Translations under genes and position numbers: made by a program
Notes under the pieces: generated by a model
The model's input: only the letters and a program-made list of their open reading frames with translations
Told to the model about the DNA's origin: nothing
Database searches by the model: none
Part shown: positions 4,346 through 50,949 of the stretch, piece by piece
Layout of the letters: each line of letters opens with the position of its first letter
Numbering within the stretch: the stretch's first letter is position 1
Source of the DNA: a virus
Virus record (IMG/VR): IMGVR_UViG_3300045988_159775
Strand: one strand, 5' to 3'
Length of the DNA stretch: 64,000 nucleotides

Positions 4346-5494
4346 TTATAGTGTTTTAGTTTTAGGAACGAATTTTGAACGCTGTTTACCCTCACCGATA
4401 ATCATTTTCCAGTACTTCTGGAATTCGCATAACCACATTTCAATCTGATGCAAGGTTATCCCCTCGTACATCATTAAGTTGGAATCTTTTTTGTATTCGT
4501 TGTACTCATTCCGGTTATAAATGAAATACTTCTTATTTTTGTAATCCCAACCCAGATACGGAAACGGTTCACTCTTTTCTTTCTCTATATCCTCAAGCAT
4601 GGAATCTGCGCAATCTCTTAACCAATAGATAGCTTTCTTTTGCTCTCGAACGGTTCTAAGACTGGGGTAAATAAGCCGGATGCCTATAGAAGCACCGGGA
4701 CCAACATTCGTAAAGGCGTTTTGATCGAACTTCATAAATTTCTTCTTCGTATAACGCCCAATATACGTAAAGTCCTGATAAAACTCATGAGCAATGAAAT
4801 CAGCAACCGCTGGAAAGGTCTTCAAATACTCTATAATATCCTCCGGCTTCTTAGCTATGACAACCTTTGCTATAAGTTCGTTCATATGCTTATGAAGATG
4901 AGGTATTACTACACGAGTGTAACAATAATCTCTCGGTTGACCGGGAGTTGCTTGAGAATTTATAAGATACGCTGTTGTGTAAGGATTCTGACCGGAAGAT
5001 CGTATTCCAGCAATAAAACGCGAAAATTCATCTTCATCATATTCTTCCCAATCCGGTATTCCGTTACGCCATTGCTTTGCTGAAATGAGATCATCCTTTC
5101 CTTGAGCTTGTTTAAGTCCTGACTTGATAGGTGCTCCAAACATATCCATTTGGAGCGTCTTTCCTTTAGGTTCAAACTCAAAAGTTTCGGGATTGTTAAA
5201 GAAGCGGAAAACCATCATCTTCCAAATAAGGTTTTTAAGAGAAAGACTTTTATCAAGAAGAATGTTTTTGATTTGCCATTGGCTATTTCTATCCAATTCC
5301 CGATATACGTTGGTAAACTTCGATTCTTGAAATATCTTGTTATCTGTCCAAGGACGCTCTTTTTGGTCAATAAACCTCCGTTTCCAGATCATCTGACGTT
5401 CGTACATAGTCTCAAAGAATAACCTCAAATGAGGTTTATAAACCTCCAAGGATTCATCCGGAAGTTTGCTATACCAAGCTGAATTTTCAAACAT
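4346..5494 (-). CDS. aGPT-Pplase-like protein (alpha-glutamyl/putrescinyl thymine pyrophosphorylase family, putative DNA base hypermodification enzyme)
   Basis: The N-terminal block YERQMIWKRRFIDQKERPWTDNKIFQESKFTNVYRELDRNSQ matches the family signature as I remember it (W-x-R, PWT-D, F-x-N-V-Y-R-E-L-D-R). It has not been checked against an HMM. Confidence 0.55.
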   Translation of the reverse strand: MFENSAWYSKLPDESLEVYKPHLRLFFETMYERQMIWKRRFIDQKERPWTDNKIFQESKFTNVYRELDRNSQWQIKNILLDKSLSLKNLIWKMMVFRFFNNPETFEFEPKGKTLQMDMFGAPIKSGLKQAQGKDDLISAKQWRNGIPDWEEYDEDEFSRFIAGIRSSGQNPYTTAYLINSQATPGQPRDYCYTRVVIPHLHKHMNELIAKVVIAKKPEDIIEYLKTFPAVADFIAHEFYQDFTYIGRYTKKKFMKFDQNAFTNVGPGASIGIRLIYPSLRTVREQKKAIYWLRDCADSMLEDIEKEKSEPFPYLGWDYKNKKYFIYNRNEYNEYKKDSNLMMYEGITLHQIEMWLCEFQKYWKMIIGEGKQRSKFVPKTKTL

Positions 5495-5495
5495 A

Positions 5496-5828
5496 TTAAA
5501 GATTTTTTGAATTTACTCTCATTATGAATTCTCGTTTTGCTTCCAATACTCCGCGTTGCATTAATTTCAAGAGTTGAGTTTTGGGAAGTTTTCTGAAAGG
5601 ACGCTTTGGATTTGTTATAAGACGGATATTTCTAATATCAAAATTACACATATTTTCCGTATTCTTTTCCTTACCTACGAAATAAGCTATTACTAAAGGC
5701 AAATACTCATTACCATGCATCTTCGATATTTCAAAAAGTTTATTGCCCCAAACGCTTTCATCCTCGTCTTTAACAATATCCCCAACACGGAAATATTTCC
5801 AATAATTATTATTGCTACTTTCTTTCAT
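5496..5828 (-). CDS. hypothetical protein
   Basis: 110-aa ORF tightly packed against 4346..5494. Confidence 0.5.
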   Translation of the reverse strand: MKESSNNNYWKYFRVGDIVKDEDESVWGNKLFEISKMHGNEYLPLVIAYFVGKEKNTENMCNFDIRNIRLITNPKRPFRKLPKTQLLKLMQRGVLEAKREFIMRVNSKNL

Positions 5829-5861
5829 GATTAAATAAACGTTGATATTTATATTAACTAT

Positions 5862-5910
5862 GGAAAGAAAAATAAATCCCGTTTTAAATCTTCACAGATT
5901 AACGGGATTT
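5862..5910 (-). terminator. rho-independent terminator
   Basis: Minus strand AAATCCCGTT-N17-AACGGGATTT (10-bp stem) followed by ATTTTTCTTTCC, downstream of the 5973 stop. Confidence 0.6.
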
Positions 5911-5972
5911 TCGGGTTACATAAAATGGTTAAGTAAGCATAAAAAGAATCATACAAAATATATCTGGAATTC

Positions 5973-6599
5973 TTATAGTCTAAATGTTGCTAACTGCTTA
6001 GGAGCTAAAGCGTATTTCTTATTATCCTTGAGTTGAAGCAAAATTTCGCATGCTCTTAAGTCCACAAGAATATTAGAAATGGCTCTTACTTCTTCGTTAT
6101 ACTTTCTTCTTGCTTCGGCTTCCTTTACACTCTTAGCAAAGTTGTATTTCTTATCTACCTTTGCAGAATGTTCTGCGGAAAGAGAACCCATTACACTTGT
6201 TTGACTACGATCATTATATTCCATTTCGTTCCACTCGTAGATTTTGTATGGTACTTCAATTCTTAAATCATCCGTCCACCATGGATTTGTACTATGTCTG
6301 GGAGCATCTCCGCAATCTTCCAAAAGATTATCCGCAGCAGTTTTCTTTTCCTCTAATTGAGCATTCAATTCGGGAATAAGAATGTTTTGTACAGATTCTT
6401 TGATCTCTTTTCCGGTTTTCGTAATCTGAATATTACCGCCATATTGTATAGCGTTCATAACGTCTGACTTTTCAATATCGTCAACCGTAGTTTCTTCCGC
6501 CTTTTGAATTCTTTCCTCCGTTTCACCTCCACAGACGCTGTAAATACGCTGAGAACGGACGTTCATTGCCGCGCGAATGCTTTTCATTACATCATCCAT
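5973..6599 (-). CDS. hypothetical protein
   Basis: 208-aa ORF with an ATG start at 6599. Confidence 0.5.
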   Translation of the reverse strand: MDDVMKSIRAAMNVRSQRIYSVCGGETEERIQKAEETTVDDIEKSDVMNAIQYGGNIQITKTGKEIKESVQNILIPELNAQLEEKKTAADNLLEDCGDAPRHSTNPWWTDDLRIEVPYKIYEWNEMEYNDRSQTSVMGSLSAEHSAKVDKKYNFAKSVKEAEARRKYNEEVRAISNILVDLRACEILLQLKDNKKYALAPKQLATFRL

Positions 6600-6602
6600 T
6601 CT

Positions 6603-6791
6603 TTATTCCTCCTCTTCGGTCTTTATGTATTTAACGTACAAAATGTGAAGAATCCATCCCGCAATAACTCCGCCTACGGCTACCACTAAGTTAGAAAGAC
6701 TAACCCAAACTGGAGTGTAATGCATGTACAAGAGAATTCCGATAACTGCCAAAACCGCGACAGCAATCCAAATGATAGTTTTCCTTTTCAT
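6603..6791 (-). CDS. small membrane protein (two predicted TM helices)
   Basis: MKRKTIIWIAVAVLAVIGILLY...LVVAVGGVIAGWILHILYV has two hydrophobic spans and an acidic tail. The topology is holin-like, but no lysin is nearby. Confidence 0.5.
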   Translation of the reverse strand: MKRKTIIWIAVAVLAVIGILLYMHYTPVWVSLSNLVVAVGGVIAGWILHILYVKYIKTEEEE

Positions 6792-6800
6792 ATAAAGTCT

Positions 6801-7775
6801 CTATTTTATTAATGATCCATAAAAATCTTCCAATGTGTACAACTTATTATACTTGTACTTATCTTTGTTTTGTTTAACGTCCTCCAGCATATTCTCCAAC
6901 AAACTCTTTCCATTCTCCGTCAAGTAATTCATTTCGTTATATACCGAAAGGTTCAACCAAGTCATTTTAAGGTTAAAGATAACCTTTCCCAATACTTCCT
7001 CATACGCCATCCCCGTAAAATCCGAAAACCGCGAAGCAATCCAAGTAGCCATTGTTATAAAATCTACATCTTTGGGCTCTTTATACGGGGTTATACTTTT
7101 GATAAACTTTTCAAAACCCTTATCGCCTACTCCCGGCTTAACTTTAGGTATGTTATCTGAATTGTCTCCCATTAAGACTTTATACAAAAGAACTTCAAAT
7201 GGGCGTATTGCTTTTACTTGTACGTCTGAATCAAAGTATTCATTCCAAAATACCTCCCTTTCCGGAACGCAATGCAAAGAGATATTTTTGGAATTGTTAT
7301 TAAACAAAGAAACGTTAGGTGTCATTATTTGACCAATGTCAGAATCTCCCGTAACTATTACCAATTCCTCCTCTTTTATCCAACCAAAGTATAATGACCA
7401 AACGTAAAGTAGATCATCCCCCTCAGCGCCCATGACTCTACTGACTATAATTCCTTTTTTACGTAGAAGATTCTCAAACATATCCAAACACGTCAGAAAA
7501 TGCTTGTAATATGGATCTCTGACTCTCGTTAGTGCGTACTTATAATCATCATAGAAACTATATCGCCAAGACGTTGAATCTATAACGAACGCTACGCGCT
7601 CAACGTCCTTAAATCTCTTTACTGTAAAACAAAGGTCTATTATACATTTGCGCATAAGAACTTGTTGTTTCTCTTTGTCTTGAAGAACTTCTCCAATATC
7701 TTGACCTTTGTAGTAGGTAGAGAAGATATTGAAATTGCGGTGGTACAGATAATTACCGTCAAATAATATATTCAT
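6801..7775 (-). CDS. 5'-3' exonuclease / flap endonuclease (PIN-like, T4 RNase H / Pol I N-domain family)
   Basis: Motifs seen: LFDGNYLYHR, VAFVIDS, MGAEGDDLLY and IVTGDSDIGQI. Confidence 0.8.
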   Translation of the reverse strand: MNILFDGNYLYHRNFNIFSTYYKGQDIGEVLQDKEKQQVLMRKCIIDLCFTVKRFKDVERVAFVIDSTSWRYSFYDDYKYALTRVRDPYYKHFLTCLDMFENLLRKKGIIVSRVMGAEGDDLLYVWSLYFGWIKEEELVIVTGDSDIGQIMTPNVSLFNNNSKNISLHCVPEREVFWNEYFDSDVQVKAIRPFEVLLYKVLMGDNSDNIPKVKPGVGDKGFEKFIKSITPYKEPKDVDFITMATWIASRFSDFTGMAYEEVLGKVIFNLKMTWLNLSVYNEMNYLTENGKSLLENMLEDVKQNKDKYKYNKLYTLEDFYGSLIK

Positions 7776-18940: not shown

Positions 18941-20359
18941 TTACTTTTTGAGAATTTGACGGTAAATTTCCTTTGATATAGCTTTTATTACTGGGATAGC
19001 TACGCTGTTACCGAATTGCTTGTAAGATTCGGTATTTGAAACCGCTATTTTAAACTCCATATTGTCCTTATACCTATCTTTTGACTTCTTATTCATCCAG
19101 CCGTTTCCCTCTATGAAATATCCTTGTAACCGTCCGGCTTCTACTGGAGTTAACTTCCTTGGGTTCTTTCCTTTGTCGGCTTGATAAATTAGTATTTCGT
19201 TCGCATCTTTATAGTATCTTGCTAAGAGAGTTGAACAATATTCACTATCTCTATCCCAAAGTGAATATCCAAAGCCATTGCCTTTCTTTTCATTCCTTTT
19301 CTTTCTTCTTTGATAACCACGTAGAGCAACGTCACTAATAGAGTAATGATCAGTTGTTGATTCTGGCTCGAATATATCCGAAAGTTTTGTTTTGATTTTT
19401 TCTTCTTGTACCTTTTGAGGATCATAAATATGCGTTCCATTCGGTTTTAATCCGTAAGGGAAATTAAAATCTTTGATATGTATTGTTTTATTATACCAAG
19501 CTATTATAAACAAACGCTCACGATTTTGAGGAACACCAAAATTTTTAGCATTCAAAACTTCATATCTATAAGAATATCCCAATTCAGAAAGAGTCTCCAA
19601 TATAACTCTCAAAGTCTCTCCTTTCTCGTGATTCTTTAATCCTTTTACGTTTTCTAAGAAAAGAACCCTTGGCGCCTTGGCGTTTTGTACCTTTTCCTTA
19701 ACTATACTGGCTATATTGAAAAACAACGTACCCCTTGTATCCTCAAATCCCTTTCTTTTTCCAGCAATAGAAAAAGGTTGACAAGGGAATCCTGCACAAA
19801 GTATATCGAAGTCCGGTATTTCTGAAAGTTTCTGTTTTGTTATATCGGAATTGAATAACTTGTAATCATTCTCAAATAAGTTTGGAGAAATATCTTTGTA
19901 ATTATGTTCATAGGTTATTCGGGCGTTCTTATCAATTTCACTCGCAAATACGCATTTAGCTCCAAGAGAATGCAGAGACTGATGAAAACCTCCTATTCCC
20001 GCAAACAAATCTATGAAAGTTACACGTTCAGAATTGCGTGACTCGTAAGCATTGATCTTTTCATTAGAATAAATCCCTACCTTAGAACTATGAAAGTCAC
20101 TTCCATTGTGGTTTACGGCATTGCTACAGTAACGTTTCGTCAGTCTATCTCTCGCGTTTACTAACTTCTCCCGTTTACGTATCGCGTACTGAACTTGACC
20201 GGGTATAGTTCCGTCTACCCAAAGGGCGTCTTTCAGTATTCTTTCTCGTTCTTTGGGAGGCATATTCATTGCCCTTGATACGAGATTGAGAAAGCGTTCC
20301 TCTTTTGTTATAGCCCAAGATATTTTCTTTATAACTCTTTGTGCAGTTTCTACGTTCAT
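18941..20359 (-). CDS. dcm: DNA (cytosine-5)-methyltransferase with an N-terminal extension of about 110 aa
   Basis: Motifs I FIDLFAGIGGF, IV GFPCQPFS, VI ENVKGL, VIII QNRERLFII and X GNSVAIPV. Confidence 0.9.
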   Translation of the reverse strand: MNVETAQRVIKKISWAITKEERFLNLVSRAMNMPPKERERILKDALWVDGTIPGQVQYAIRKREKLVNARDRLTKRYCSNAVNHNGSDFHSSKVGIYSNEKINAYESRNSERVTFIDLFAGIGGFHQSLHSLGAKCVFASEIDKNARITYEHNYKDISPNLFENDYKLFNSDITKQKLSEIPDFDILCAGFPCQPFSIAGKRKGFEDTRGTLFFNIASIVKEKVQNAKAPRVLFLENVKGLKNHEKGETLRVILETLSELGYSYRYEVLNAKNFGVPQNRERLFIIAWYNKTIHIKDFNFPYGLKPNGTHIYDPQKVQEEKIKTKLSDIFEPESTTDHYSISDVALRGYQRRKKRNEKKGNGFGYSLWDRDSEYCSTLLARYYKDANEILIYQADKGKNPRKLTPVEAGRLQGYFIEGNGWMNKKSKDRYKDNMEFKIAVSNTESYKQFGNSVAIPVIKAISKEIYRQILKK

Positions 20360-21398: not shown

Positions 21399-22832
21399 TT
21401 AAATCGCTTCTATATCAGACTTCCATTCTGGAGTTTCAAGTAAATCCTTTAATTCCCGTCCGGTTATAACGGGATATGGATAAACTCTTTCTTGTTCTCC
21501 CTCTGAAACGGTACGATAGATCGGAGGATACCAGCGATCATATTCTTCAAGATGTACTACGGCTTCCGTCTGCGCTACGTTTGTAATACGAATTGACCAA
21601 TTATCATCCTTTGAATAAAGTTCGTCCATAGGAATGACAATATATTTTTGATAATCTGATAAATTATCGCTTGGCGTATATTCCGCAACGTCATCTGAGG
21701 TTAACGTCCTAACGGATTTTGAACCGGGGAATTGCTTTGCTATTTCCTCGTCCATCTCTTCTTGAGTCATTACTCCTTTATAAAGGACTACTTTGTAGAA
21801 TGCACAAGTAGTAGGCGCTGCACCGCTTTGTCCGCCCTCTTGATCGAAAAGATAAAAACCGTTCAAGTGTAAGAAATTGAACTTATAATCTTCCAATCCA
21901 CTATTTGTAATGCTATAAACTAATTCAGCATCTGGTAGTACTACTTTTGGATCAGCGGTTCTTGTGGAATACAAATAACTATAACCTCTTACTCCCCTTA
22001 CATAAATCGTATCTGGAAGAGGTGTAGCATATCTGAATAACCTCGCATACGTTTGTATATCTGCGCTCTCTCTAAAGAATGAACAAAGAAACGTAACAGA
22101 GACATTATTGTTATAAATAGGATGATAATCAGCCAATATTGTAAAATCTTCTCCAACTCCTATCGTATCGGCAAGGGAGATAGAAACGCGATCATCATAG
22201 CCGTCAAATACCAATGCTCCCTCGTAATTAGCAGGAAGTAACTTAATAGTTATTGGAACGTTTTCTTGTCCCTCTGCTAATTTAGCAAAAAATATGCCTA
22301 TGGACAAACTTGTCTCACTTTCTTCAAAAATATGTTCATCGCTATAAGGATAAGATTGTATTCCATTAGTCTCTGTCCTTGTAGTATAACGGTTGGCTGA
22401 TCCGTCTCTCCATGAATATGTCGTTAAAACAGTACCCTCAATGAGTCCGCTCACTTCAAAATTAAAACCAAGAACTTCTTTAGTTACTCTTTGAGTAGTA
22501 CCACTGGGATTAATAGCTAATATCCAAGTAGATTCCGTTGGATTATTTACAGTACGCGTTAAATTAGTATCAATAACTTCCAAAGAGGAAGTTGTATACG
22601 TCCATTCGCTTATGGAAGTCGAATACATCCCATATCCACTCGAACCAGCAAAAGCGAAATTTCTCAAATTAAGAATATGACCTTTCTCTCCAACCATTTG
22701 TTCTGGATTAGGGCTATCATTATTCTTAGTAGAAAAATCCCAAGCATCAAACAACTTATACGTTTTACCCCCGCCACCGGAAGCGCGGTATGCAGGGGTA
22801 ATATTTCCTAATTTTCCAAAACGTCCTAACAT
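21399..22832 (-). CDS. LamG/concanavalin-A-like lectin domain protein
   Basis: GALVFDGYDDRVSISLADTIGVGEDFTILADYHPI is a typical Laminin_G_3-type block. The rest is unknown. Confidence 0.5.
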   Translation of the reverse strand: MLGRFGKLGNITPAYRASGGGGKTYKLFDAWDFSTKNNDSPNPEQMVGEKGHILNLRNFAFAGSSGYGMYSTSISEWTYTTSSLEVIDTNLTRTVNNPTESTWILAINPSGTTQRVTKEVLGFNFEVSGLIEGTVLTTYSWRDGSANRYTTRTETNGIQSYPYSDEHIFEESETSLSIGIFFAKLAEGQENVPITIKLLPANYEGALVFDGYDDRVSISLADTIGVGEDFTILADYHPIYNNNVSVTFLCSFFRESADIQTYARLFRYATPLPDTIYVRGVRGYSYLYSTRTADPKVVLPDAELVYSITNSGLEDYKFNFLHLNGFYLFDQEGGQSGAAPTTCAFYKVVLYKGVMTQEEMDEEIAKQFPGSKSVRTLTSDDVAEYTPSDNLSDYQKYIVIPMDELYSKDDNWSIRITNVAQTEAVVHLEEYDRWYPPIYRTVSEGEQERVYPYPVITGRELKDLLETPEWKSDIEAI

Positions 22833-42471: not shown

Positions 42472-43098
42472 TTAAATGTTTTCTAATTCACTGAAATCCA
42501 TATTCGTATTAGGAAAATGAAGTTTCAAATCTTTTATCAAAATCTCTTTTGCTTTTAGAATGTTTTCTTTCGCCCTAAATAACAATTCTTCAAAATCGCT
42601 ATTGCCTAATTTCATTTCACGTTTAATGAACATAATTAAAGCTAACCAATCACAAACTTTTACGAAATTATTTTCAATAGACGTTGAACTAATTATGTTG
42701 TTTATCATCATTTCTGAAGCGAAAGTCATTTGATCAACGACTCCTTTGACTTCCTCCTTTAATTCTTCACTAACTTTATAACGAACAAAACTATTTAGAG
42801 CGCGCCTAATATCGTATCCGTTATACTCATTGTATTTTATTTCATGTGAAAGGTCTCTCAAGATAAACGACTCATCCCAATCGTGTAGTAAGGCGCGCGT
42901 AATTACTTCTAACTTAAATTCATTTACATTCGCATCCTCTGATTGTCCAAATATATCTTCCAATAGGACGCGTGCAAAGATTGCTACTTTGTAGGAATGT
43001 TGACTTACGCTTTCTTGTTTAAATACGTCTTTCTCCTGCCACTGTATGATGTTATCAAGACGCTGGAGATACTTACCATTAAAAATTTTGCTTAACAT
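42472..43098 (-). CDS. HD-domain 5'-deoxynucleotidase (YfbR-like)
   Basis: LQRLDNIIQWQEKDVFKQESVSQHSYKVAIFARVL and ALLHDWDESFILRDLSHEIKY parallel E. coli YfbR (LSRLKLINRW...ENVSEHSLQVAMVAHAL and MYHDASEVLTGDLPTPVKY). Confidence 0.7.
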   Translation of the reverse strand: MLSKIFNGKYLQRLDNIIQWQEKDVFKQESVSQHSYKVAIFARVLLEDIFGQSEDANVNEFKLEVITRALLHDWDESFILRDLSHEIKYNEYNGYDIRRALNSFVRYKVSEELKEEVKGVVDQMTFASEMMINNIISSTSIENNFVKVCDWLALIMFIKREMKLGNSDFEELLFRAKENILKAKEILIKDLKLHFPNTNMDFSELENI

Positions 43099-43110: not shown

Positions 43111-45159
43111 TTACGATACTATATAAATCTTCGTCCTATCATCAGAATAAAGAGCCCTTTGATTTTTGAACTTATCTTTCTTCACTCTCCCTGAAATAGC
43201 AACGACTCTATTTTCGTAATTCTCTATATTTTCCGGTAATCTCTCTACAGCATCTGGCCAAAGTGTTACGGGAATAATCGTATTATTGCAATCTATATTC
43301 AAGCTAACCATAGTGCCGTTTTTAATTTTCCGTTCCACGTAATATATTAACTTGCCTGCTATGGTTACTTCGCTGCCCTCCTTGACGTTTCCGAATTCGA
43401 AGTCATTAACGAATAACTTAGCAACCCTACGATTGGGGATAGCGTCACGAATCATGGTTTCATAATCTACTTCTCCGAATCCGGTTAAACGTCTTTGTTC
43501 AAATACCCAAAATGAGTTTGTTTCTGACTCTGGAGTTTGATATTGAGGAGGCATCTGAGCTTTCTTCCTATCCAAATACCAAGCTAATAGTTTTTTACGC
43601 TCACGTGTATTTTTCAAATCCTCTACTACATCAAAAGCACCGCTTATAATCAAGTTCTGAATTACAGTCTTATTAACTTTGGACGGAACGCGTTCCACAA
43701 ACTCTTCCAATGAGAAAAACCTCCCATGCGCTTCCCTTTCCCCTATTATTAGAGGAACAACTTTATCACCAATATTTTTGATCTTTGTTAGGCTAAAGAA
43801 TATTCTTTGTTCTTTTGGATCGCAAGTAAATCTCGTTTCAGAGAAATTTATATCCGGGGGACGTACTTCTATCTCAACGCCTGTTTTCTTCAATTCGGCA
43901 AGGCGATAAGGTATTTCAGATTCTTTGGCAAATTGTAACGAAGCAGTCCAAAATTCCAAGGGATAATTAACTTTCATGTATTGACTCCAATAAGACATGA
44001 TAGAATACGCTGCCGCGTGACTCTTATTAAAACCGTAACCACTAAAAGCCAATAACTTATCCCAAACATTTTTAGCATATTCCTCTGGGTTAGGAATGTC
44101 ATGCTCTTTTAACAACTTTATGTAGCCCTCCTTGAATTTTTCTCCAAACGAGCCCAAAGTTTTTACGTCTTTTTTCTTTATCGTAGTTCTAAGTATATCC
44201 GATTCTACCTCAGTCAATCCGGCTACCACTACGGCTTTCATAATTTGTTCTTGATAAACATAAAGTCCGAACGTTTCACGCGTTATTTCCTCCATGCCAA
44301 AATCAAACTTAGGTTTCTTTTTCCCGTTTTTAATTTCAGAAAAATCGTCATGAGCTCTCAATTCCATTGGCCCCGGACGAAAGAGAGCAGTCATTGCTAT
44401 GAGTTGAGCTAACGTATCCGGCTTAACTTGACGACAATAGTTCATAAGTCCTTGCGTACCGAACTGAAATACGTCTTCATTCCATCCTCTACGGAAGAAT
44501 TTGAACGTTTCTTCATCATCTAAGGGTATTTCATTCCAGTTGATTTTCTTGCCCGTATTACGCTGAATTAACGTCTCCATATCTTTGAACTTATCCAATT
44601 GATTAAGTCCCAAAATATCCTCCTTTAGAAAGCCTGATTTATCAATGTATTTTCCCTCCCATTCAGAAACAAGTACGCCATCGATCATCTTTATAGGCAT
44701 CCACTCCCATATATCCGTTTCCCGATCTTTGCCGTCTACGGTATGTTTAGGTACAATAACAACGGCTGATGGATGGACGGAAGCCGAACGACACTGCAAC
44801 AAACTATACTTCGTTAAATGAACTATATCGGGATTATCTTGAACGAACTTGAATAAGGCTTTAGATCGACTCGCATATTCAATTAAATCTCCCCAAGTGT
44901 ATTCTGTTTGATCATCTATGTCTTTTGTTATCTTATTCATAGTATCAAAAGGAATGCCCTTAACTTTCCCAAAGTCCTTTAAACAAGACTTCAGTTTCAT
45001 TCGCCCATACGTTCCGATCGAACAAGTGTAATCATAGCCGTACTTTTGTTTTATGTAATCCTTTACCGCATCCCGATATTCTGTTGGAAAATCGACATCT
45101 ATGTCCGGCATCATGTCGCTACGAAAAATTTTTACTTTTTTTATAGAAATTGCCTTCAT
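43111..45159 (-). CDS. dnaE: DNA polymerase III alpha (DnaE), C-terminal fragment (palm/fingers/OB)
   Basis: After a 15-aa leader it begins MMPDIDVDFPTEYRD. It also carries FRPGPM, GFNKSHAAAYS and a C-terminal OB fold (VTIAGKLIYYVERKIKNGTMVSL). Confidence 0.85.
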   Translation of the reverse strand: MKAISIKKVKIFRSDMMPDIDVDFPTEYRDAVKDYIKQKYGYDYTCSIGTYGRMKLKSCLKDFGKVKGIPFDTMNKITKDIDDQTEYTWGDLIEYASRSKALFKFVQDNPDIVHLTKYSLLQCRSASVHPSAVVIVPKHTVDGKDRETDIWEWMPIKMIDGVLVSEWEGKYIDKSGFLKEDILGLNQLDKFKDMETLIQRNTGKKINWNEIPLDDEETFKFFRRGWNEDVFQFGTQGLMNYCRQVKPDTLAQLIAMTALFRPGPMELRAHDDFSEIKNGKKKPKFDFGMEEITRETFGLYVYQEQIMKAVVVAGLTEVESDILRTTIKKKDVKTLGSFGEKFKEGYIKLLKEHDIPNPEEYAKNVWDKLLAFSGYGFNKSHAAAYSIMSYWSQYMKVNYPLEFWTASLQFAKESEIPYRLAELKKTGVEIEVRPPDINFSETRFTCDPKEQRIFFSLTKIKNIGDKVVPLIIGEREAHGRFFSLEEFVERVPSKVNKTVIQNLIISGAFDVVEDLKNTRERKKLLAWYLDRKKAQMPPQYQTPESETNSFWVFEQRRLTGFGEVDYETMIRDAIPNRRVAKLFVNDFEFGNVKEGSEVTIAGKLIYYVERKIKNGTMVSLNIDCNNTIIPVTLWPDAVERLPENIENYENRVVAISGRVKKDKFKNQRALYSDDRTKIYIVS

Positions 45160-45950
45160 CTTATTCTCGGTTTCATACCATAAACATAACCATCTGGGAG
45201 TGGAGAATTTTTATCAATAACCTTATTCAAAACTCCGTTATTTATTCTAACTTTGCCGGTCATAGGATTAATACAGCCATTAAGATATTGTTTCTTTTTC
45301 TTCTCTGACATTTGTCTCCTTTGTTCTTCATTCCACTTATTACCGTAATTAGGATTTAAAACCCCAATGTATCTACCTTTCATAATATCAGATTGTTTCT
45401 TTTTTTGTTCCTCGTTCCATTTATTACCGTAATTAGGATTTAAAACCCCAACATATCTACCAGAAAGTGTTTTTGATATTCTTTGTTTATAATCCGTATT
45501 ATGCAATTTTAAAAATCTCTTTCTTTCTCTTTCTTTCCTTTTATCAGGGTTTTTAATATTCCATAAAATTGCAGATTCGCTACACTTTTTGCGAACAATT
45601 GGATCTTTCATAGGACTACCCGAACCAAATTGATTAGCAGTTCCCCAGAGTACATTGCAACCTCCTAACCCATAAGAATAATGAGATTTTTCTTTCTTAA
45701 TGAAACATTCTTCTAATTTATCAAGAACTCTTTGCGAACAAAAATTTTCATACAAAATTTCCTTTTTAATCAACTTTTTCCAACAGGTTGGATAATCCTT
45801 TCTCAGTCGTTTCAGAAAATCATCCCAAATTCTTCCGCTTCCCCAATAATTATCTAATGAACCCCAATGCTGTCCTACATAATATGGGTTTCGTCCGTTA
45901 AATTTATGCCCTGATAATATAGTGAATTTGTAAATTATTCCCTTTTTCAT
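45156..45950 (-). mobile_element. GIY-YIG homing endonuclease with two NUMOD3-like repeats
   Basis: GIIYKFT..NPYYVGQ (the GIY-YIG motifs). GVLNPNYGNKWNEEQ occurs twice. ATGA overlaps join it to both dnaE fragments. Confidence 0.85.
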
Positions 45951-47626
45951 AACATTGACTTTAATTTATCTACGTCAATATCTATATTTGAAAAATCTAA
46001 ATCTACGTCAATATCTATTTCTTCCCCATTTGTTAAAGGTATTTTTATTTTCTTTTCGACTGGAATAATAATAACTTCTCCATTCTCCATTTCAATTACA
46101 AAATTCTCTGGGGCTTTAACACGCGTCTCGTTCAAAAATCTCTCGAACATAAGATCGTACTTCAATGGATCTACGTCTGTAATATGAAGACAATATGCTA
46201 CTAAACTACCACAAACTGAACCTCTACCCGTTCCGACCATTATGTCATTACTCTTACACCAATTTATAATATCCCAAAGGATCATAAAGTAGTCTACCAA
46301 GTCATTAGGAACAATTACTTTACATTCCGTTTCCAAGCGTTTCATATAAACGTCAAACTCCTTTTCGGGTAGATCGCCTAAACGCTCAGATACACCCTTT
46401 TCCAAAACTTTAAAGAAAAACTCAGTAGCATCCTTAACTTCAAATTTCGGTAGTTTACGCTCTCCGGACGGAATTTTGAATTCAATTTCTTGAGAAAGAC
46501 TAACGGCGTTTTCTATACCCTCTGTTATTACTTCAAACAAAGGCTCCACTTCATCTAACCAATCTATGTAGGCATTGAATGTATCTCGACAACTTTTGAA
46601 ATATTGGTCTTTAGCTTCTGGTATTGCTTCGCCTAAAACAGCATTGAGAGTTTTCTTCAATTCACTCATTTCCCGATCTAAATAATACGAATCATTTATC
46701 AAGATCGGACGAACGTATTTTTGATATTTAAGTATGTAAGTATCGAGGTTGGAAAGGTGTTTTTTGAATAAAGTCTCCGATACGTATTCAACCGTATCAA
46801 TTTGATAAAAGACTTTTGAAAATTTCTTCTTGTATGTCTTAATTAGTTTCCTAACTGTTTCCGGTTCATCTTTCAAATAATTGACTTCTGATTCCTTTGG
46901 AATAACGAGTGCTAAACCAGAGCCGTATTTATACAATTCATAATCGGGAATAAACCCACGATAAGTTACATTGACGGCTTTATTGATTTGTAAGAGATTC
47001 AACCATCCCTCAAAATTCAATACGTATAGTTTAAGTTCAAAGGTTTCTTGGTTGGTCTTTTCAGCATCATATTCTTTTGCTACTACGACCGTTTCGCCAA
47101 TAATAGATTTAATCCCTTTTTTATCGCAAAAAGTCTGAAAGGAGAGCGTGCCTGCTAAAGTATTCTTATCACAAATACCTAATGACTTAATGCCCATAAA
47201 CGCGGCTTTCCTCACCCAAGTTTCGCACCCTCCGCTTCCATTCAATATTTCATACTCTGAGTGAACTCCCAGATGAACGTAATCGGTTATAAATTCCTCG
47301 CTCGTTTTACCAAGATATTTGAAATCATTGAATTGAGGCTTAAAGATTACTTCATTATAACGGTTCTTGTCTTTTATGATAGCCGAATAATAAAATTTCT
47401 TGCCGAACTCAAACAGAATGTATTTAACCTTTTCCTCGTCCAAAAGATCGAATTCTTCATCTGAAAGAAGAAATGAGAAATCCTCATCAATTATCTTTCC
47501 GTCAAAGGGATGTAAGTATAAAAAGTCCCCAACTTCCTCGATAGAAATAATATCAGAACCCTCCAAAGAAGATTCTGATACTACTAAATTATTTTCCTTT
47601 ACCCAAAGGCTCAATTCTTCTGTCAT
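45947..47626 (-). CDS. dnaE: DNA polymerase III alpha (DnaE), N-terminal fragment (PHP domain and start of palm)
   Basis: PHP motif YVHLGVHSEYEILNG, then GTGRGSVCGSLVAYCLHITDVDPLKYDLMFERFLNETR, then a 57-aa non-canonical tail. Confidence 0.85.
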   Translation of the reverse strand: MTEELSLWVKENNLVVSESSLEGSDIISIEEVGDFLYLHPFDGKIIDEDFSFLLSDEEFDLLDEEKVKYILFEFGKKFYYSAIIKDKNRYNEVIFKPQFNDFKYLGKTSEEFITDYVHLGVHSEYEILNGSGGCETWVRKAAFMGIKSLGICDKNTLAGTLSFQTFCDKKGIKSIIGETVVVAKEYDAEKTNQETFELKLYVLNFEGWLNLLQINKAVNVTYRGFIPDYELYKYGSGLALVIPKESEVNYLKDEPETVRKLIKTYKKKFSKVFYQIDTVEYVSETLFKKHLSNLDTYILKYQKYVRPILINDSYYLDREMSELKKTLNAVLGEAIPEAKDQYFKSCRDTFNAYIDWLDEVEPLFEVITEGIENAVSLSQEIEFKIPSGERKLPKFEVKDATEFFFKVLEKGVSERLGDLPEKEFDVYMKRLETECKVIVPNDLVDYFMILWDIINWCKSNDIMVGTGRGSVCGSLVAYCLHITDVDPLKYDLMFERFLNETRVKAPENFVIEMENGEVIIIPVEKKIKIPLTNGEEIDIDVDLDFSNIDIDVDKLKSML

Positions 47627-48831
47627 AACTTTCCAAGATAATCATGTTTCATTGGAATAGTTAACCTTGATGCAAAGAAATTCTTAGCTAATATTGCCAT
47701 ATCCCAATCGTGCGCACCCTCCGCTTCCATGAGCTCTATTTCAGATATAGCCGTTTTCCTAATAGCATCCTTTTCTTCTACCGACTTGCAAACCTTGTTT
47801 TTTTGCTTGTATTTAACGTAAATACTTAATAGCCGATATACGTTATGGAAGAAGTGAGAAAACTCTTGTAATTGCTTTATTTCATCTTTGTTTACTTCTC
47901 CACCTCGTTGATCTTCCAAAAGGTTACGGATAATTAAATCAAAGTAATAGTTTATTTCTATGAACTTATTTGTCGGAACGTCATGAGAAAAATTGAAGTC
48001 CATAGGTTTTTCCTCCGCTGGAGTAGATTCGTAAAGAGAGTGGCCACCGCCTTGTTTTTCAAATTCTTCGTCCATTTCATCCGCCGTACCATTCCAATTG
48101 TAAATATGAAGACTTTGAGAATTATGAGTTTGAGTCCCCAACTCTATTCCCAAACAAGAAGCTATAACTTCAGATAAGAAACTGAATTGGAATACGTTCG
48201 TTGGAAGTCCCCAATGCAAGTCGTTACTCCGATTAGCTATTGTAGTTATTAGTTTTCCGTTTCTAATTTTGAACATAACTAAATCATTGCACGGTATATC
48301 ACGCGATTTACTCCCTAAATCTAAAACAGGATTCCAAATCGACATAACGACTTGACGACTATTAGGATTACCATATAAAATCCTAATAGCTTCCAAAACT
48401 TGATCAAAACCTCTTTGAACTGAAACGTTTGAAGAAAATGGATCATCGGAACGAGAACCCCAATGACGTAAACGAAAACCGTATGGCGCATGAAATACAA
48501 TTCCATCATCGCTAAAGTCTTTCATACGAGAATTAAAGATATTCAAGAATTCAACGTCACTTCTTCCGCTTACTATCCAAATCGCTTCGGCAAGAAGAAA
48601 GAATACATTAATATCTCTACCATAACCTCCTGTGCAACGCTTGTAAGGATTCGTTATAATAGTTTTGACATCCAGTAGTTCTTTTACTTCCCCGTTCCGG
48701 CTTTCTTCTAAATCCTTATTGTTAAGAATGTAATTGTTAATAACCGGGTAAATAATCCCAAAATTCTCCGCTTTTGCTACACCATAATCTGGTATGAAAC
48801 AATTAGTTTTAGGTAAAATATTATCTTTCAT
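47623..48831 (-). CDS. thymidylate synthase-family enzyme, probably a deoxyuridylate hydroxymethylase or an atypical TS
   Basis: NPNSRQVVMSIWNP, DIPCN (catalytic Cys), ANRSNDLHWGLPTNVFQF and SLHIY. At 402 aa it is longer than ThyA. Confidence 0.75.
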   Translation of the reverse strand: MKDNILPKTNCFIPDYGVAKAENFGIIYPVINNYILNNKDLEESRNGEVKELLDVKTIITNPYKRCTGGYGRDINVFFLLAEAIWIVSGRSDVEFLNIFNSRMKDFSDDGIVFHAPYGFRLRHWGSRSDDPFSSNVSVQRGFDQVLEAIRILYGNPNSRQVVMSIWNPVLDLGSKSRDIPCNDLVMFKIRNGKLITTIANRSNDLHWGLPTNVFQFSFLSEVIASCLGIELGTQTHNSQSLHIYNWNGTADEMDEEFEKQGGGHSLYESTPAEEKPMDFNFSHDVPTNKFIEINYYFDLIIRNLLEDQRGGEVNKDEIKQLQEFSHFFHNVYRLLSIYVKYKQKNKVCKSVEEKDAIRKTAISEIELMEAEGAHDWDMAILAKNFFASRLTIPMKHDYLGKL

Positions 48832-49031: not shown

Positions 49032-50276
49032 TTATTTCTTAACTGTTTTCTTTATGACCTTGCTTTTCTTAACAGGCTTTGGCGCTTCTTCCTCTTCTTC
49101 ATCGTCCTCATCTTCTTCCGGCTCTACGACTTTCTTGGCAACGGGCTTTTTGGCGGTTTTCTCTTTCTTCAAGTTATCCTCCATTTTCTTGCGGTTGTCA
49201 CCCAATTTTTTGTCTACCGTCTTAACCATACGTTCCATATCCGGAAGTAATGTTTCAATGATCTCGATCAATTCTGAGCTTTCTACGCTCTTCAACATTG
49301 GAGCACCTGACCAACATTTTTCGAATTCAATTTCGGCTTTTTCCAAAATCTCGTCCTTACCGTTGAACAACAAAAGATAAACGTTGCACGTCATAACGGC
49401 TTTTTTACCCTCGCCTTTTACAAAGCAATTTTCAACCCCAATAATGCTACGATTAGAATTTTTGCCTTTGTACTTGATAGTAAGACCAGCGGCAATCCAT
49501 GCGTACAAATATTCACTTTCTGGGAAGTACTTCTTCAGAAAATCGAACGCTGCGCGATCTTCTTCATTGTTCTTAGGATTTAAACGCGTTCCTTTTTTGG
49601 TAGCTGCTTTTTCTGCTGGTTTAGCAGCAGTTTTCTTTGCTTCCTTAACTTCTTTCTTCGCTACTTCCTTTTTTGCTGTAGCTGCTTTGGAAGCCTTTTT
49701 AGGTGCGGGTTTTTCTTCTTCCTCTTCATCATCTTCCTCCTCCGGCTCAAGGAGAGCATTGATAGCATCGCGAATATCATCGTCAGACCAAGATTTTTTA
49801 ACTGATATCTCCAAACCTTTTTCCTTGATGTATGCTTTCAATTCCTCACGACTCATATCTTCCAAAGAAACGTTTTCATCTTCATCCTCCGGTTCTTCCT
49901 CTTCTTCATCGTCCTCATCTTCTTCCGGCTCTACGACTTTCTTGGTCGCTTTCTTTACCTTTGGCGCTTCTTTCTTAGCAGGCTTTTCGGCTTTCTTCTT
50001 TGACGCTTTATCTTCTTCCTCTACTTCCTCCGCCAGTTCGTCTGCTTCGGCTTCCTCATCAATATCATCGTTTTCATCTTCGTCATCTGACGTTGTGTCA
50101 TTAACAAAAGTTTCAGCAATTTCCACGATAGTAATCAGTTCCTCATCATCCATCTGTTCAATTCCGTTCTCTTCAAGGATTTCCAGAAGTTTCGGTTTAA
50201 CCGCTTCTTCAGTTGAACCTGAAATTCCTAAAGCCTTAACACGCTTTGCTAAAGCGCCAGTCAATTTTGTTGCCAT
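49032..50276 (-). CDS. acidic/lysine-rich repeat protein with a HeH (Rho_N/SAP-like) motif
   Basis: I prefer the ATG at 50276 (MATKLTGALAKRV), preceded by AAATTGTAAAAACA. It has three KKVVEPEEDEDDEEEEE repeats and LKAYIKEKGLEISVKKSWSDDDIRDAI. Confidence 0.6.
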   Translation of the reverse strand: MATKLTGALAKRVKALGISGSTEEAVKPKLLEILEENGIEQMDDEELITIVEIAETFVNDTTSDDEDENDDIDEEAEADELAEEVEEEDKASKKKAEKPAKKEAPKVKKATKKVVEPEEDEDDEEEEEPEDEDENVSLEDMSREELKAYIKEKGLEISVKKSWSDDDIRDAINALLEPEEEDDEEEEEKPAPKKASKAATAKKEVAKKEVKEAKKTAAKPAEKAATKKGTRLNPKNNEEDRAAFDFLKKYFPESEYLYAWIAAGLTIKYKGKNSNRSIIGVENCFVKGEGKKAVMTCNVYLLLFNGKDEILEKAEIEFEKCWSGAPMLKSVESSELIEIIETLLPDMERMVKTVDKKLGDNRKKMEDNLKKEKTAKKPVAKKVVEPEEDEDDEEEEEAPKPVKKSKVIKKTVKK

Positions 50277-50304
50277 TGTTTTTACAATTTTAGTTAATAA
50301 TTTT

Positions 50305-50949
50305 TTATTCGTTCTCTGAATTGTTATATCTTGAGAATACTCTCCTTTTTTGCTGAAGTTCGTTACCATATTTTCTGATAAGGAATTCTTTTTGCATTTC
50401 TATTATATCTGTAACGCCAAAAGGTTCATCCCCACTTGCTATAATTTCACGTTTCTTTTTCTTTTCCTCAGCATTGTTAAAATAAACTTTGGTAAGAAAT
50501 GCTATACTATGACCTCGCAAATAAAGAGAAAATACTGAACGTTCCTTGCCGGTTAATCCCTCCAATAGATCAATATCATTAACAATGAATTTATTTTGCT
50601 CATTTGATATTTTACAATCTTCCTCTATACCGAAATCGTAATCTATTTCATCAATGCGAATTTTATTATTTTCACGCGTTATGAGTTTCATAAAATCACG
50701 CATTTTATTGCTACACGCTGCTTCCAAATAATATCTTATCGGAACGGGTTTTGCATATCCCTCTTTCCTGTACTTCGCCCATCTTCTGCCGTAGCTTTTA
50801 ATGGAAAGGAAGATTTTTATACGGAATTCTTGTACCAAATCCTCGTACTCGAACGAGAGTTGTTCGAATGAATAGATACGAGAAGCATATTTTTTTGCTA
50901 AATACTCGTATCTATTGTAAATTTTCTCAGATACTTTCATAGTATACAA
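50305..50949 (-). CDS. divergent sigma-70-family-like protein (tentative)
   Basis: A region-2-like block (EDLVQEFRIKIFLSIKSYG..YYLEAACSNKMRDFMK) and a region-4-like block (LTGKERSVFSLYLRGHSIAFLTKVY). Confidence 0.35.
   Translation of the reverse strand: MYTMKVSEKIYNRYEYLAKKYASRIYSFEQLSFEYEDLVQEFRIKIFLSIKSYGRRWAKYRKEGYAKPVPIRYYLEAACSNKMRDFMKLITRENNKIRIDEIDYDFGIEEDCKISNEQNKFIVNDIDLLEGLTGKERSVFSLYLRGHSIAFLTKVYFNNAEEKKKKREIIASGDEPFGVTDIIEMQKEFLIRKYGNELQQKRRVFSRYNNSENE

Follow-up and report, generated by a model that had tools for sequence, protein, structure and literature searches.

The DNA analysed here, a stretch of 64,000 nucleotides from the IMG/VR virus record IMGVR_UViG_3300045988_159775 (hereafter the window), is phage DNA with almost all of its genes on the minus strand, including those for a portal protein, an intein-containing large terminase, DnaB, a primase, a DnaE-type DNA polymerase, SbcCD, a RecA-like protein, UvrD and a tail fibre. 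At positions 47623-48831 of the minus strand lies a ThyA-like gene, exactly one open reading frame (ORF) from ATG to TGA that encodes 402 residues and is predicted to specify a deoxyuridylate (dUMP) hydroxymethylase of the SPO1 gp29 family. Such hydroxymethylases are known phage enzymes, and their product, 5-hydroxymethyl-dUMP (5-hmdUMP), lets the thymine of viral DNA be replaced or further decorated. Megablast found no match to 20 kb of the window in 50,697 phage records, so that the phage has no close cultured relative at the DNA level; its relatives were found on many contigs of ~95-105 kb.

Family membership of the ThyA-like protein

An earlier reading of this DNA (the original prediction) had described a thymidylate synthase (TS)-like catalytic core, and the motifs that it quoted are all in place: SRQVVMSIWNP at residues 158-168, DIPCN at 178-182 and HIY at 242-244, with NRSND at 200-204 and GLPTN at 208-212. 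Pfam PF00303 (Thymidylat_synt) matches the protein across residues 79-245 with an expect value (E) of 2e-24, and solved thymidylate synthases in the PDB match it with E down to 3e-20. Both IMG and PHROG name the family 'thymidylate synthase', and the same name is attached to a public metagenomic protein that is identical to ours and lies on a contig of 101,774 bp. For the portal protein and the protein at the right end of the window, look-ups by exact sequence had no match, probably owing to differing start calls.

Profile and homologue searches point to a narrower group within this superfamily. On PHROG 5131 the protein scored 246 bits (E 1e-72), against 113 bits on PHROG 160. The former is the best profile for SPO1 gp29 and for the enzymes of SP10, ZC01 and P26218 (430-548 bits), and the latter is the best for Escherichia coli ThyA and T4 gp42, which reach 96 and 44 bits, respectively, on PHROG 5131. 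When the 50,697 phage records were searched with tblastn, the top match was SPO1 gp29 (39% identity over residues 27-274, E 2e-45), followed by the SP10 'dUMP hydroxymethylase' and its counterparts in SP8, CP-51 and JL, and then by the matches in Pseudomonas phage ZC01, which carries the name 'deoxyuridylate hydroxymethyltransferase', and Rhodoferax phage P26218. SPO1 gp29 is a biochemically defined enzyme according to work cited in PMC8989533 (Wilhelm & Ruger 1992).

An exhaustive HMMER search of 1.84 billion representative proteins recovered 573 clusters at E <= 1e-30; from among the best full-length representatives, 126 were aligned with reference sequences. The neighbour-joining tree built from the resulting set of 133 sequences had only two outgroups, E. 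coli ThyA (identical in sequence to PDB 1AOB) and T4 gp42, and thus serves for placement rather than as a full phylogeny. In this tree the 402-residue protein falls inside a clade with all four gp29-type references, and a long branch divides this clade from both outgroups; the phylogenetic check proposed in the original prediction, which was to distinguish synthase from hydroxymethylase clades, therefore came out in favour of the hydroxymethylases. Judged by its sequence, the protein is a new and fairly divergent member (32-39% identity to cultured examples) of a known family, found in an uncultured phage lineage.

Active site and predicted structure

The residues conserved across the whole superfamily are kept in our alignments (Glu82, Trp85, Tyr117, Arg159, Cys181, Arg201, Ser202, Asp204, His242 and Tyr244). 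In place of the TS pattern L-x-P-C-H with Q-R-S-C/G-D, the protein has the gp29-type signature D-x-P-C-N with N-R-S-N-D. Relative to E. coli TS, Leu143 is replaced by Asp178, His147 by Asn182, Gln165 by Asn200, Cys168 by Asn203, Trp83 by Phe106 and Phe176 by Thr211, and Trp80 has no counterpart; these departures are exactly the gp29-family positions. Conservation of the signature is very high: Asp178, Cys181 and Asn182 are each present in 126/126 clusters, Pro180 in 120/126, and Asn203 and Asn212 each in 124 of the 126, while D-x-P-C-N together with RSND...N is kept in 120/120 close homologues. The original prediction had read the combination as a mixture of hydroxymethylase-type and dUMP-specific residues. 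The residues are indeed there, yet they are not peculiar to this protein, since the combination is invariant across the gp29 family and is thus the standard signature of a large known family and not a chimera. The likeness of the RSND block to T4 gp42 also stands, the block aligning with MRSND in gp42 against QRSCD in E. coli ThyA. The claim that Cys-Asn is gp42-like does not, because the catalytic cysteine is set in Met-Cys-Thr in T4 gp42 and in Ala-Cys-Thr in MilA, and Cys-Asn is a hallmark of the gp29 family.

Several of these positions bear on the chemistry. Asp178 occupies the site of Asp145 in T4 deoxycytidylate (dCMP) hydroxymethylase and of Leu143 in E. coli TS, and MilA shares the aspartate; Asn203 stands in place of TS Cys168, likewise in gp42 and MilA. 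In the ternary complex of the T4 enzyme, Asp145, with the loss of Trp83 and of the C-terminal lid, is proposed to turn the pterin out of the geometry required for hydride transfer and to let water in (PMC6400193). The residues on which TS depends specifically for cofactor binding and hydride transfer (Leu143, His147, Gln165, Trp80, Trp83, Phe176 and the C-terminal lid) are all replaced or absent here, and for this reason the protein is not a canonical ThyA. Nor is it a gp42-type dCMP hydroxymethylase, because Asn212 is found instead of the specificity residue Asp179.

Substrate discriminators have been set out in a study of MilA, in which ribonucleotide users have Lys133' and Ala176 and deoxynucleotide users Arg and Ser, and in which cytosine users have Asp186 and uracil users Asn, the SPO1 enzyme being named among the latter (Zhao et al. 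2016, PMC5175136). The uracil and 2'-deoxyribose states (Asn at TS position 177, Arg at 126' and Ser at 167) are those of Asn212, Arg159 and Ser202. We therefore predict dUMP as the substrate, with Ser202 as the putative deoxyribose discriminator and Asn212 as the putative uracil-specificity residue. This agrees with the original prediction, which had taken the Asn of GLPTN to mark the pyrimidine-specificity site: Asn212 aligns with Asn177 of E. coli ThyA and with Asp179 of T4 gp42. In two of the clusters, P0215 and P0217, D-I-P-C-N and NRSND are kept and the pyrimidine-specificity position has Asp, not Asn; from their sequences, these are candidate cytosine-specific enzymes within the dUMP hydroxymethylase clade.

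The AlphaFold2 model of the protein, built from an alignment of 146 sequences, is confident (predicted local distance difference test (pLDDT) score 95.3, predicted template modelling (pTM) score 0.94), and its sole disordered part is an inserted loop at residues 135-139. In a Foldseek search of the PDB, seven MilA chains ranked on top (E 1e-17, template modelling (TM) score normalized to the target, TMt, 0.76-0.82, 325-365 aligned columns), with thymidylate synthases next (E 1e-14, ~280 columns, query-normalized score, TMq, 0.45-0.51). Similarly, MilA reached 159 bits with the family profile, against a maximum of 106 bits among thymidylate synthases; a fold search of BFVD with the model added little. 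The comparison by alignment and model that the original prediction had called for thus returned a gp29-like signature and, as the best structural match, a pyrimidine hydroxymethylase. The gp29 family appears to be without a solved structure, which would make MilA its nearest template.

The additional length noted in the original prediction (~100 extra residues with a C-terminal extension) is real, at 402 residues against 264 in E. coli ThyA, and comes from ~20 residues at the N-terminus, from a loop at ~125-140 and from a helical extension at the C-terminus with five helices in the model (286-308, 315-324, 326-346, 351-373 and 377-387). It is a family feature rather than a novelty. The extension takes the place of the short ThyA C-terminus that closes over the folate, and it aligns with those of SPO1 gp29 (383 residues), SP10 (382), ZC01 (348) and P26218 (349). 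According to the model, the extra length is a structured helical domain, partly common to MilA and fully common to gp29-type proteins, and therefore no oddity of the 402-residue protein.

Set against the characterized enzymes, the protein most resembles SPO1 gp29 and its counterparts in SP10, SP8 and CP-51, with which it shares PHROG 5131, D-x-P-C-N, N-R-S-N-D, the specificity Asn, the C-terminal helical extension and a similar length; the loop at ~125-140 and a longer N-terminus are its differences from gp29. The enzymes of the M6/Ab18/PaMx11-type Pseudomonas phages (ZC01_014) and of Rhodoferax phage P26218 belong to the same family and bear the same signature. MilA, the cytidylate (CMP) 5-hydroxymethylase of Streptomyces rimofaciens (PDB 5JNH, 5B6D and 5JP9), is the best structural and profile match and shares with our protein an Asp placed three residues ahead of the catalytic Cys, the Asn-Asp pair and some of the additional helices at the C-terminus, but it reads Cys-Thr, Arg-Ala-Asn-Asp, Asp186, Lys133' and Ala176 where the 402-residue protein has Cys-Asn, Arg-Ser-Asn-Asp, Asn212, Arg159 and Ser202. 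T4 gp42 is alike in its hydroxymethylase chemistry, in Asp145 (equivalent to Asp178) and in the RSND block, and differs in its low identity (21%), its PHROG (160), Asp179 for cytosine, Cys-Thr, and a length of 246 residues without the C-terminal extension. E. coli ThyA shares the fold, the nucleophile, the phosphate-binding arginines and Asn177, which is equivalent to Asn212 and therefore implies the same substrate, dUMP; at 22% identity, however, Leu143, His147, Gln165, Cys168, Trp80, Trp83, Phe176 and the C-terminal lid are all replaced, and the predicted products are 5-hmdUMP and tetrahydrofolate (THF) where E. coli ThyA yields thymidylate (dTMP) and dihydrofolate (DHF).

Associated genes in the window and its relatives

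Table 1. Features of the window discussed in the text, with the evidence for each
Feature	Position	Strand	Evidence
Predicted dUMP hydroxymethylase, SPO1 gp29 family, ThyA fold	47623..48831	(-)	ORF, Pfam, PHROG, tblastn, AlphaFold
Codons Asp178-Ile-Pro-Cys181-Asn182; Cys181 is the catalytic nucleophile	48286..48300	(-)	Sequence reading, alignments
Codons Asn200-Arg-Ser-Asn203-Asp204 to Gly-Leu-Pro-Thr211-Asn212	48196..48234	(-)	Sequence reading, alignments
C-terminal extension, ~residues 250-402, mainly long alpha-helices	47626..48084	(-)	AlphaFold, alignment
DNA polymerase III alpha (DnaE-type)	43111..47626	(-)	Pfam PHP, DNA_pol3_alpha, finger, HHH_6
GIY-YIG/NUMOD3 homing-endonuclease ORF	45156..45950		
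HD-domain protein, YfbR 5'-deoxynucleotidase-like	42472..43098	(-)	Pfam YfbR-like E 4e-16, PHROG 7076
dUTPase domain (~230-360) fused to N-terminal extension of ~200 residues	9973..11061	(-)	Pfam dUTPase E 3e-28, PHROG 135 E 1e-53
PF18723 ('HMUDK_hel') protein, 382 residues	4346..5494	(-)	Pfam E 1e-46; tblastn to SP10 gp186C E 4e-23
Ferritin-like/rubrerythrin-like protein, 196 residues	9372..9962	(-)	
Large terminase subunit with intein, 910 residues	11315..14047	(-)	
C5-cytosine DNA methyltransferase	18941..20359	(-)	Pfam E 8e-88
Protein of 445 residues with acidic and lysine-rich repeats	49032..50369	(-)	
Weak sigma-factor-like protein	50305..50949	(-)	PHROG 1740 E 4e-4

A PF18723 protein is encoded 43 kb from the hydroxymethylase gene, between the terminase and portal genes. 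PF18723 is a marker of DNA hypermodification based on 5-hydroxymethyldeoxyuridine (5-hmdU), and hypermodification genes are reported to co-associate with dUMP hydroxymethylase (PMC5889632, PMC8989533). The ThyA-like query recovered six long relatives, every one of which carries PF18723; among 24 viral contigs more distantly related, 15 have a PF18723 gene immediately upstream of a gp29-like gene, an architecture that we checked in one of them (L172). These IMG/VR loci (L165-L178 and L186) are unrelated viral contigs, mostly 20-60 kb long, with PolA. The L172 pair (4681-6969) has as neighbours genes for a 2-oxoglutarate-Fe(II) oxygenase, UvrD, a pyrimidine-dimer-glycosylase-like protein and an S-adenosylmethionine (SAM) methyltransferase, with no PF18748 kinase within 6 kb.

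For stand-alone proteins, which also occur in ViI-like phages, for example as MAM_083 of phiMAM1, the Pfam name of PF18723 ('HMUDK_hel: 5-hmdU DNA kinase, helical domain') is misleading. We considered, from that name, whether the window protein might be a 5-hmdU DNA kinase and rejected this, as it comprises the PF18723 part only and has no Walker A motif. In SP10 gp186, a kinase domain (PF18748) spans residues 35-193 and PF18723 residues 313-598; gp186N is listed as kinase and gp186C as 'aG/PT-PPlase1' (Lee 2018, Table 3), and gp186 with its C-terminus deleted still shows kinase activity (Lee 2021). By tblastn the window protein matches gp186C only, with nothing for gp186N. Its AlphaFold model has a pLDDT of 88.5, and the top three PDB fold matches are to PaMx11 gp46, a 5-PmdU glycinyltransferase, with helix-hairpin-helix (HhH) glycosylase-like folds after them; at E 0.5 and TM 0.3-0.4 the matches lack significance, and the likeness to a glycinyltransferase is therefore only suggestive. 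On the strength of its family, the protein is predicted to act on 5-hmdU-derived bases in DNA.

The thymidine hypermodification systems of Lee et al. (2018 and 2021) combine a dUMP hydroxymethylase, a P-loop 5-hmdU DNA kinase (5-HMUDK, PF18748) and an aGPT-Pplase, and this phage has a homologue of the first. Searches for the kinase gave nothing at several levels. Pfam detected no PF18748 domain in the window ORFs of at least 170 residues, none was found in ~8 kb past the portal gene and the left end of the window in a 99% identical relative (L088), and tblastn with gp186N was empty both in the window and in 150 related loci totalling 2.67 Mb. A scan for Walker A motifs, and PDB and BLASTP checks of the ORF at 21399-22832, which contains ASGGGGKT, yielded no kinase either. 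Herein lies a difference from ZC01 and P26218, in which the hydroxymethylase gene adjoins a recognizable 5-hmdU DNA kinase gene (ZC01_012 and P26218_15); the order in ZC01 is kinase-like, PF18723-like, hydroxymethylase. In those phages the hydroxymethylase supplies 5-hmdU for post-replicative thymidine hypermodification, with a PF18723-like gene associated, which is the role that we propose here. The comparison with SPO1 runs the other way, for SPO1 stops at 5-hmdU and this phage has a PF18723 gene, like SP10.

The 99% identical relative also encodes, ~6.5 kb past the left end of the window and among head-module genes, a 318-residue radical SAM protein with a SPASM domain (L088:18242-19198). 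Near it are genes for a 553-residue protein with a papain-fold glutamine-deamidase domain and for another GIY-YIG endonuclease. Radical SAM enzymes belong to some thymidine hypermodification pathways, such as that of M6 (gp53), and SP10 gp185 is listed as well (Lee 2018). Possibly, then, the radical SAM/SPASM protein is part of a DNA modification pathway.

Directly downstream of the hydroxymethylase gene, and overlapping its stop codon as ATGA, begins the gene for the DnaE-type polymerase; in this arrangement the two genes are translationally coupled. In SPO1, as in this phage, the hydroxymethylase gene belongs to the replication module and is near the DNA polymerase gene, and in SPO1 and SP10 a few genes separate the two. 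SPO1 is a myovirus of the Herelleviridae with PolA and the phage studied here is uncultured, ~100 kb in size, and has a DnaE-type polymerase. The polymerase is split into two ORFs by a homing-endonuclease ORF, with 4-nucleotide overlaps at both junctions. The polymerase is continuous and the endonuclease absent in four relatives that are 73-98% identical (L159-L162), and in another (L164) a different endonuclease (41% identity) occupies the same polymerase site.

Two further genes may act on nucleotide pools. The dUTPase is predicted from its sequence to supply dUMP and to guard against dUTP; its N-terminal part (217 residues) had no match in Pfam, PHROG or the sequences of the PDB. The HD-domain nucleotidase is a candidate for depleting dTMP or thymidine triphosphate (dTTP), by analogy with other phages; it had no tblastn homologue among the phage records and no detectable similarity to the HD protein encoded beside the P26218 enzyme. 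Pool manipulation in phages with 5-hydroxymethyluracil (hmU) is described as involving dTMPase, dTTPase and dUMP supply (PMC8989533), and the pair fits this pattern, although we infer their role in this phage. No dihydrofolate reductase (DHFR), ThyX or second ThyA was found among the window ORFs of at least 170 residues.

The remaining observations concern the surroundings of these genes. A gap of 200 nucleotides ahead of the hydroxymethylase gene contains a terminator-like hairpin followed by a T-run, and the protein encoded directly upstream, with long acidic (EPEEDEDDEEEEE) and lysine-rich repeats, had no family match in Pfam or PHROG; upstream of it in turn is the weakly sigma-factor-like protein. 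The intein of the large terminase subunit has Hint and LAGLIDADG homing-endonuclease domains, the ferritin-like gene adjoins the dUTPase gene, and the window contains no transfer RNA genes. The leaders are rich in A and poor in Shine-Dalgarno sequences, from which we guess at a Bacteroidota host. The C5-cytosine DNA methyltransferase has an N-terminal extension of ~110 residues, and from the presence of its gene it seems that the phage probably methylates cytosines too.

Predicted function and its implications

Taken together, the fold, the family membership, the active-site signature and the genomic association are observed, and we put at about 80% the probability that the ThyA-like gene specifies a dUMP hydroxymethylase, also called deoxyuridylate hydroxymethyltransferase, belonging to the SPO1 gp29 family. 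The proposal of the original prediction that the enzyme makes 5-hmdUMP is thereby supported by every one of our comparisons, namely the closest characterized homologue, the PHROG assignment, the tree, the signature, the discriminator residues, the structure match and the hypermodification gene. The product, the fate of the cofactor, the manipulation of pools and the nature of the final base are inferred.

In the mechanism that we propose, the reaction would start as in thymidylate synthase, with Cys181 attacking C6 of dUMP and the methylene group of 5,10-methylene-THF passing to the C5 carbanion. Water would then hydrate the exocyclic methylene intermediate, with no reduction by the THF hydride, giving 5-hmdUMP and THF; no DHF would be formed and therefore no DHFR would be needed. 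Phosphorylation by cellular or other kinases would convert 5-hmdUMP to its triphosphate (5-hmdUTP), which the DnaE-type polymerase encoded immediately downstream would incorporate in place of dTTP, with the dUTPase and the HD nucleotidase biasing the nucleotide pools. Some or all of the 5-hmdU in DNA would probably be processed further by the aGPT-Pplase-like PF18723 protein. The first of these steps, 5-hmdUMP synthesis, is well supported by the sequence comparisons and the model; the final base in the virion could be 5-hmdU itself or a hypermodified thymidine, whether known or new.

Three other functions deserve consideration. The name used in public annotation would make the protein a divergent but bona fide thymidylate synthase that yields dTMP and DHF, and the Pfam match, the IMG and PHROG label and the intact superfamily core (Glu82, Tyr117, Arg159, Cys181, Arg201, Ser202, Asp204, Asn212, His242 and Tyr244) agree with this. 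We nonetheless regard it as highly improbable: the score on the gp29 PHROG is more than twice that on the ThyA PHROG, the TS-specific folate and hydride-transfer residues are replaced and a helical domain stands where the carboxylate lid would be, no DHFR is found among the window ORFs of at least 170 residues, and a gene specific to thymidine-hypermodification systems lies in the same genome. It is also improbable, in our view, that the protein is a hydroxymethylase or C5-transferase with a different substrate or product, acting on dCMP, on uridylate (UMP) or CMP, or trapping the methylene intermediate with a nucleophile other than water. The nearest solved structures are of a CMP hydroxymethylase, the Asp of P0215 and P0217 indicates that specificity can switch within the clade, and the encoded C5-cytosine methyltransferase would mean that cytosine modification occurs too; yet Asn212, Arg159 and Ser202 fit uracil and deoxyribose and not the pattern of MilA, BcmA or gp42, the signature up to the specificity Asn does not vary among the 120 close homologues, and 5-hmdU-based systems are the sole known setting of the PF18723 family that accompanies the enzyme.

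That the ThyA-like protein should lack catalytic activity or be regulatory, for instance as a scaffold in a nucleotide-synthesizing complex, would be a considerable surprise. Contacts with other proteins could be made through the long helical domain at the C-terminus, and T4 gp42 is part of a deoxynucleoside triphosphate (dNTP) synthetase complex, going by the title of a 1999 paper by Song et al. that PMC5175136 cites. Every catalytic residue, however, is conserved across 126 divergent clusters, and the confident model has an intact active-site core.

Some findings sit less easily with a dUMP hydroxymethylase. The score of 246 bits on PHROG 5131 is well below the 430-548 bits of established members, and identity to gp29 is just ~32-39%. 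None of the PDB matches is a solved structure named dUMP hydroxymethylase, and the residues that would force hydration over hydride transfer are therefore extrapolated from the T4 enzyme and MilA. No dCMP deaminase or deoxynucleoside monophosphate kinase was recognized in the window. Finally, the PF18748 kinase, whose domain is the usual activator of 5-hmdU in DNA, went undetected in a search that left ~28 kb of the ~100 kb genome outside it and that divergent kinases could escape, so that the downstream pathway is incomplete as it is understood at present.

It may be that a gp29-type enzyme and a stand-alone PF18723 protein work without a canonical PF18748 kinase, both in the abundant ~100 kb phages studied here and in several unrelated lineages of viruses that have the two genes side by side. 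We consider this doubtful, though worth keeping in mind. If true, it would mean either kinase-independent activation or derivatization of 5-hmdU in DNA or an unrecognized kinase, and could point to an undescribed thymidine hypermodification, in which the radical SAM/SPASM enzyme, whose gene lies just beyond the window, possibly assists.

A dUMP hydroxymethylase in this phage would hold no surprise for a specialist in phage DNA modification, and the case is modestly interesting for the apparent abundance of the lineage and for the recurrent pairing of the hydroxymethylase with PF18723 where a kinase is not recognizable. The public label 'thymidylate synthase' would hide a hydroxymethylase function, and the residue rule that emerges here (Asp three residues before the catalytic Cys, Cys-Asn, RSND and the specificity Asn) may help to re-annotate more than 570 sequence clusters. 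Proteins of the lineage occur on ~100 kb contigs, such as IMGVR_UViG_3300045988_134063, in many assemblies, one of them with a Human Microbiome Project-type accession number. If our reading is correct, a widespread phage lineage that has never been cultured probably has 5-hydroxymethyluracil or a derivative of it instead of thymine; such DNA would resist many restriction enzymes and, in metagenomic work, could introduce bias into library preparation, PCR and nanopore base-calling.

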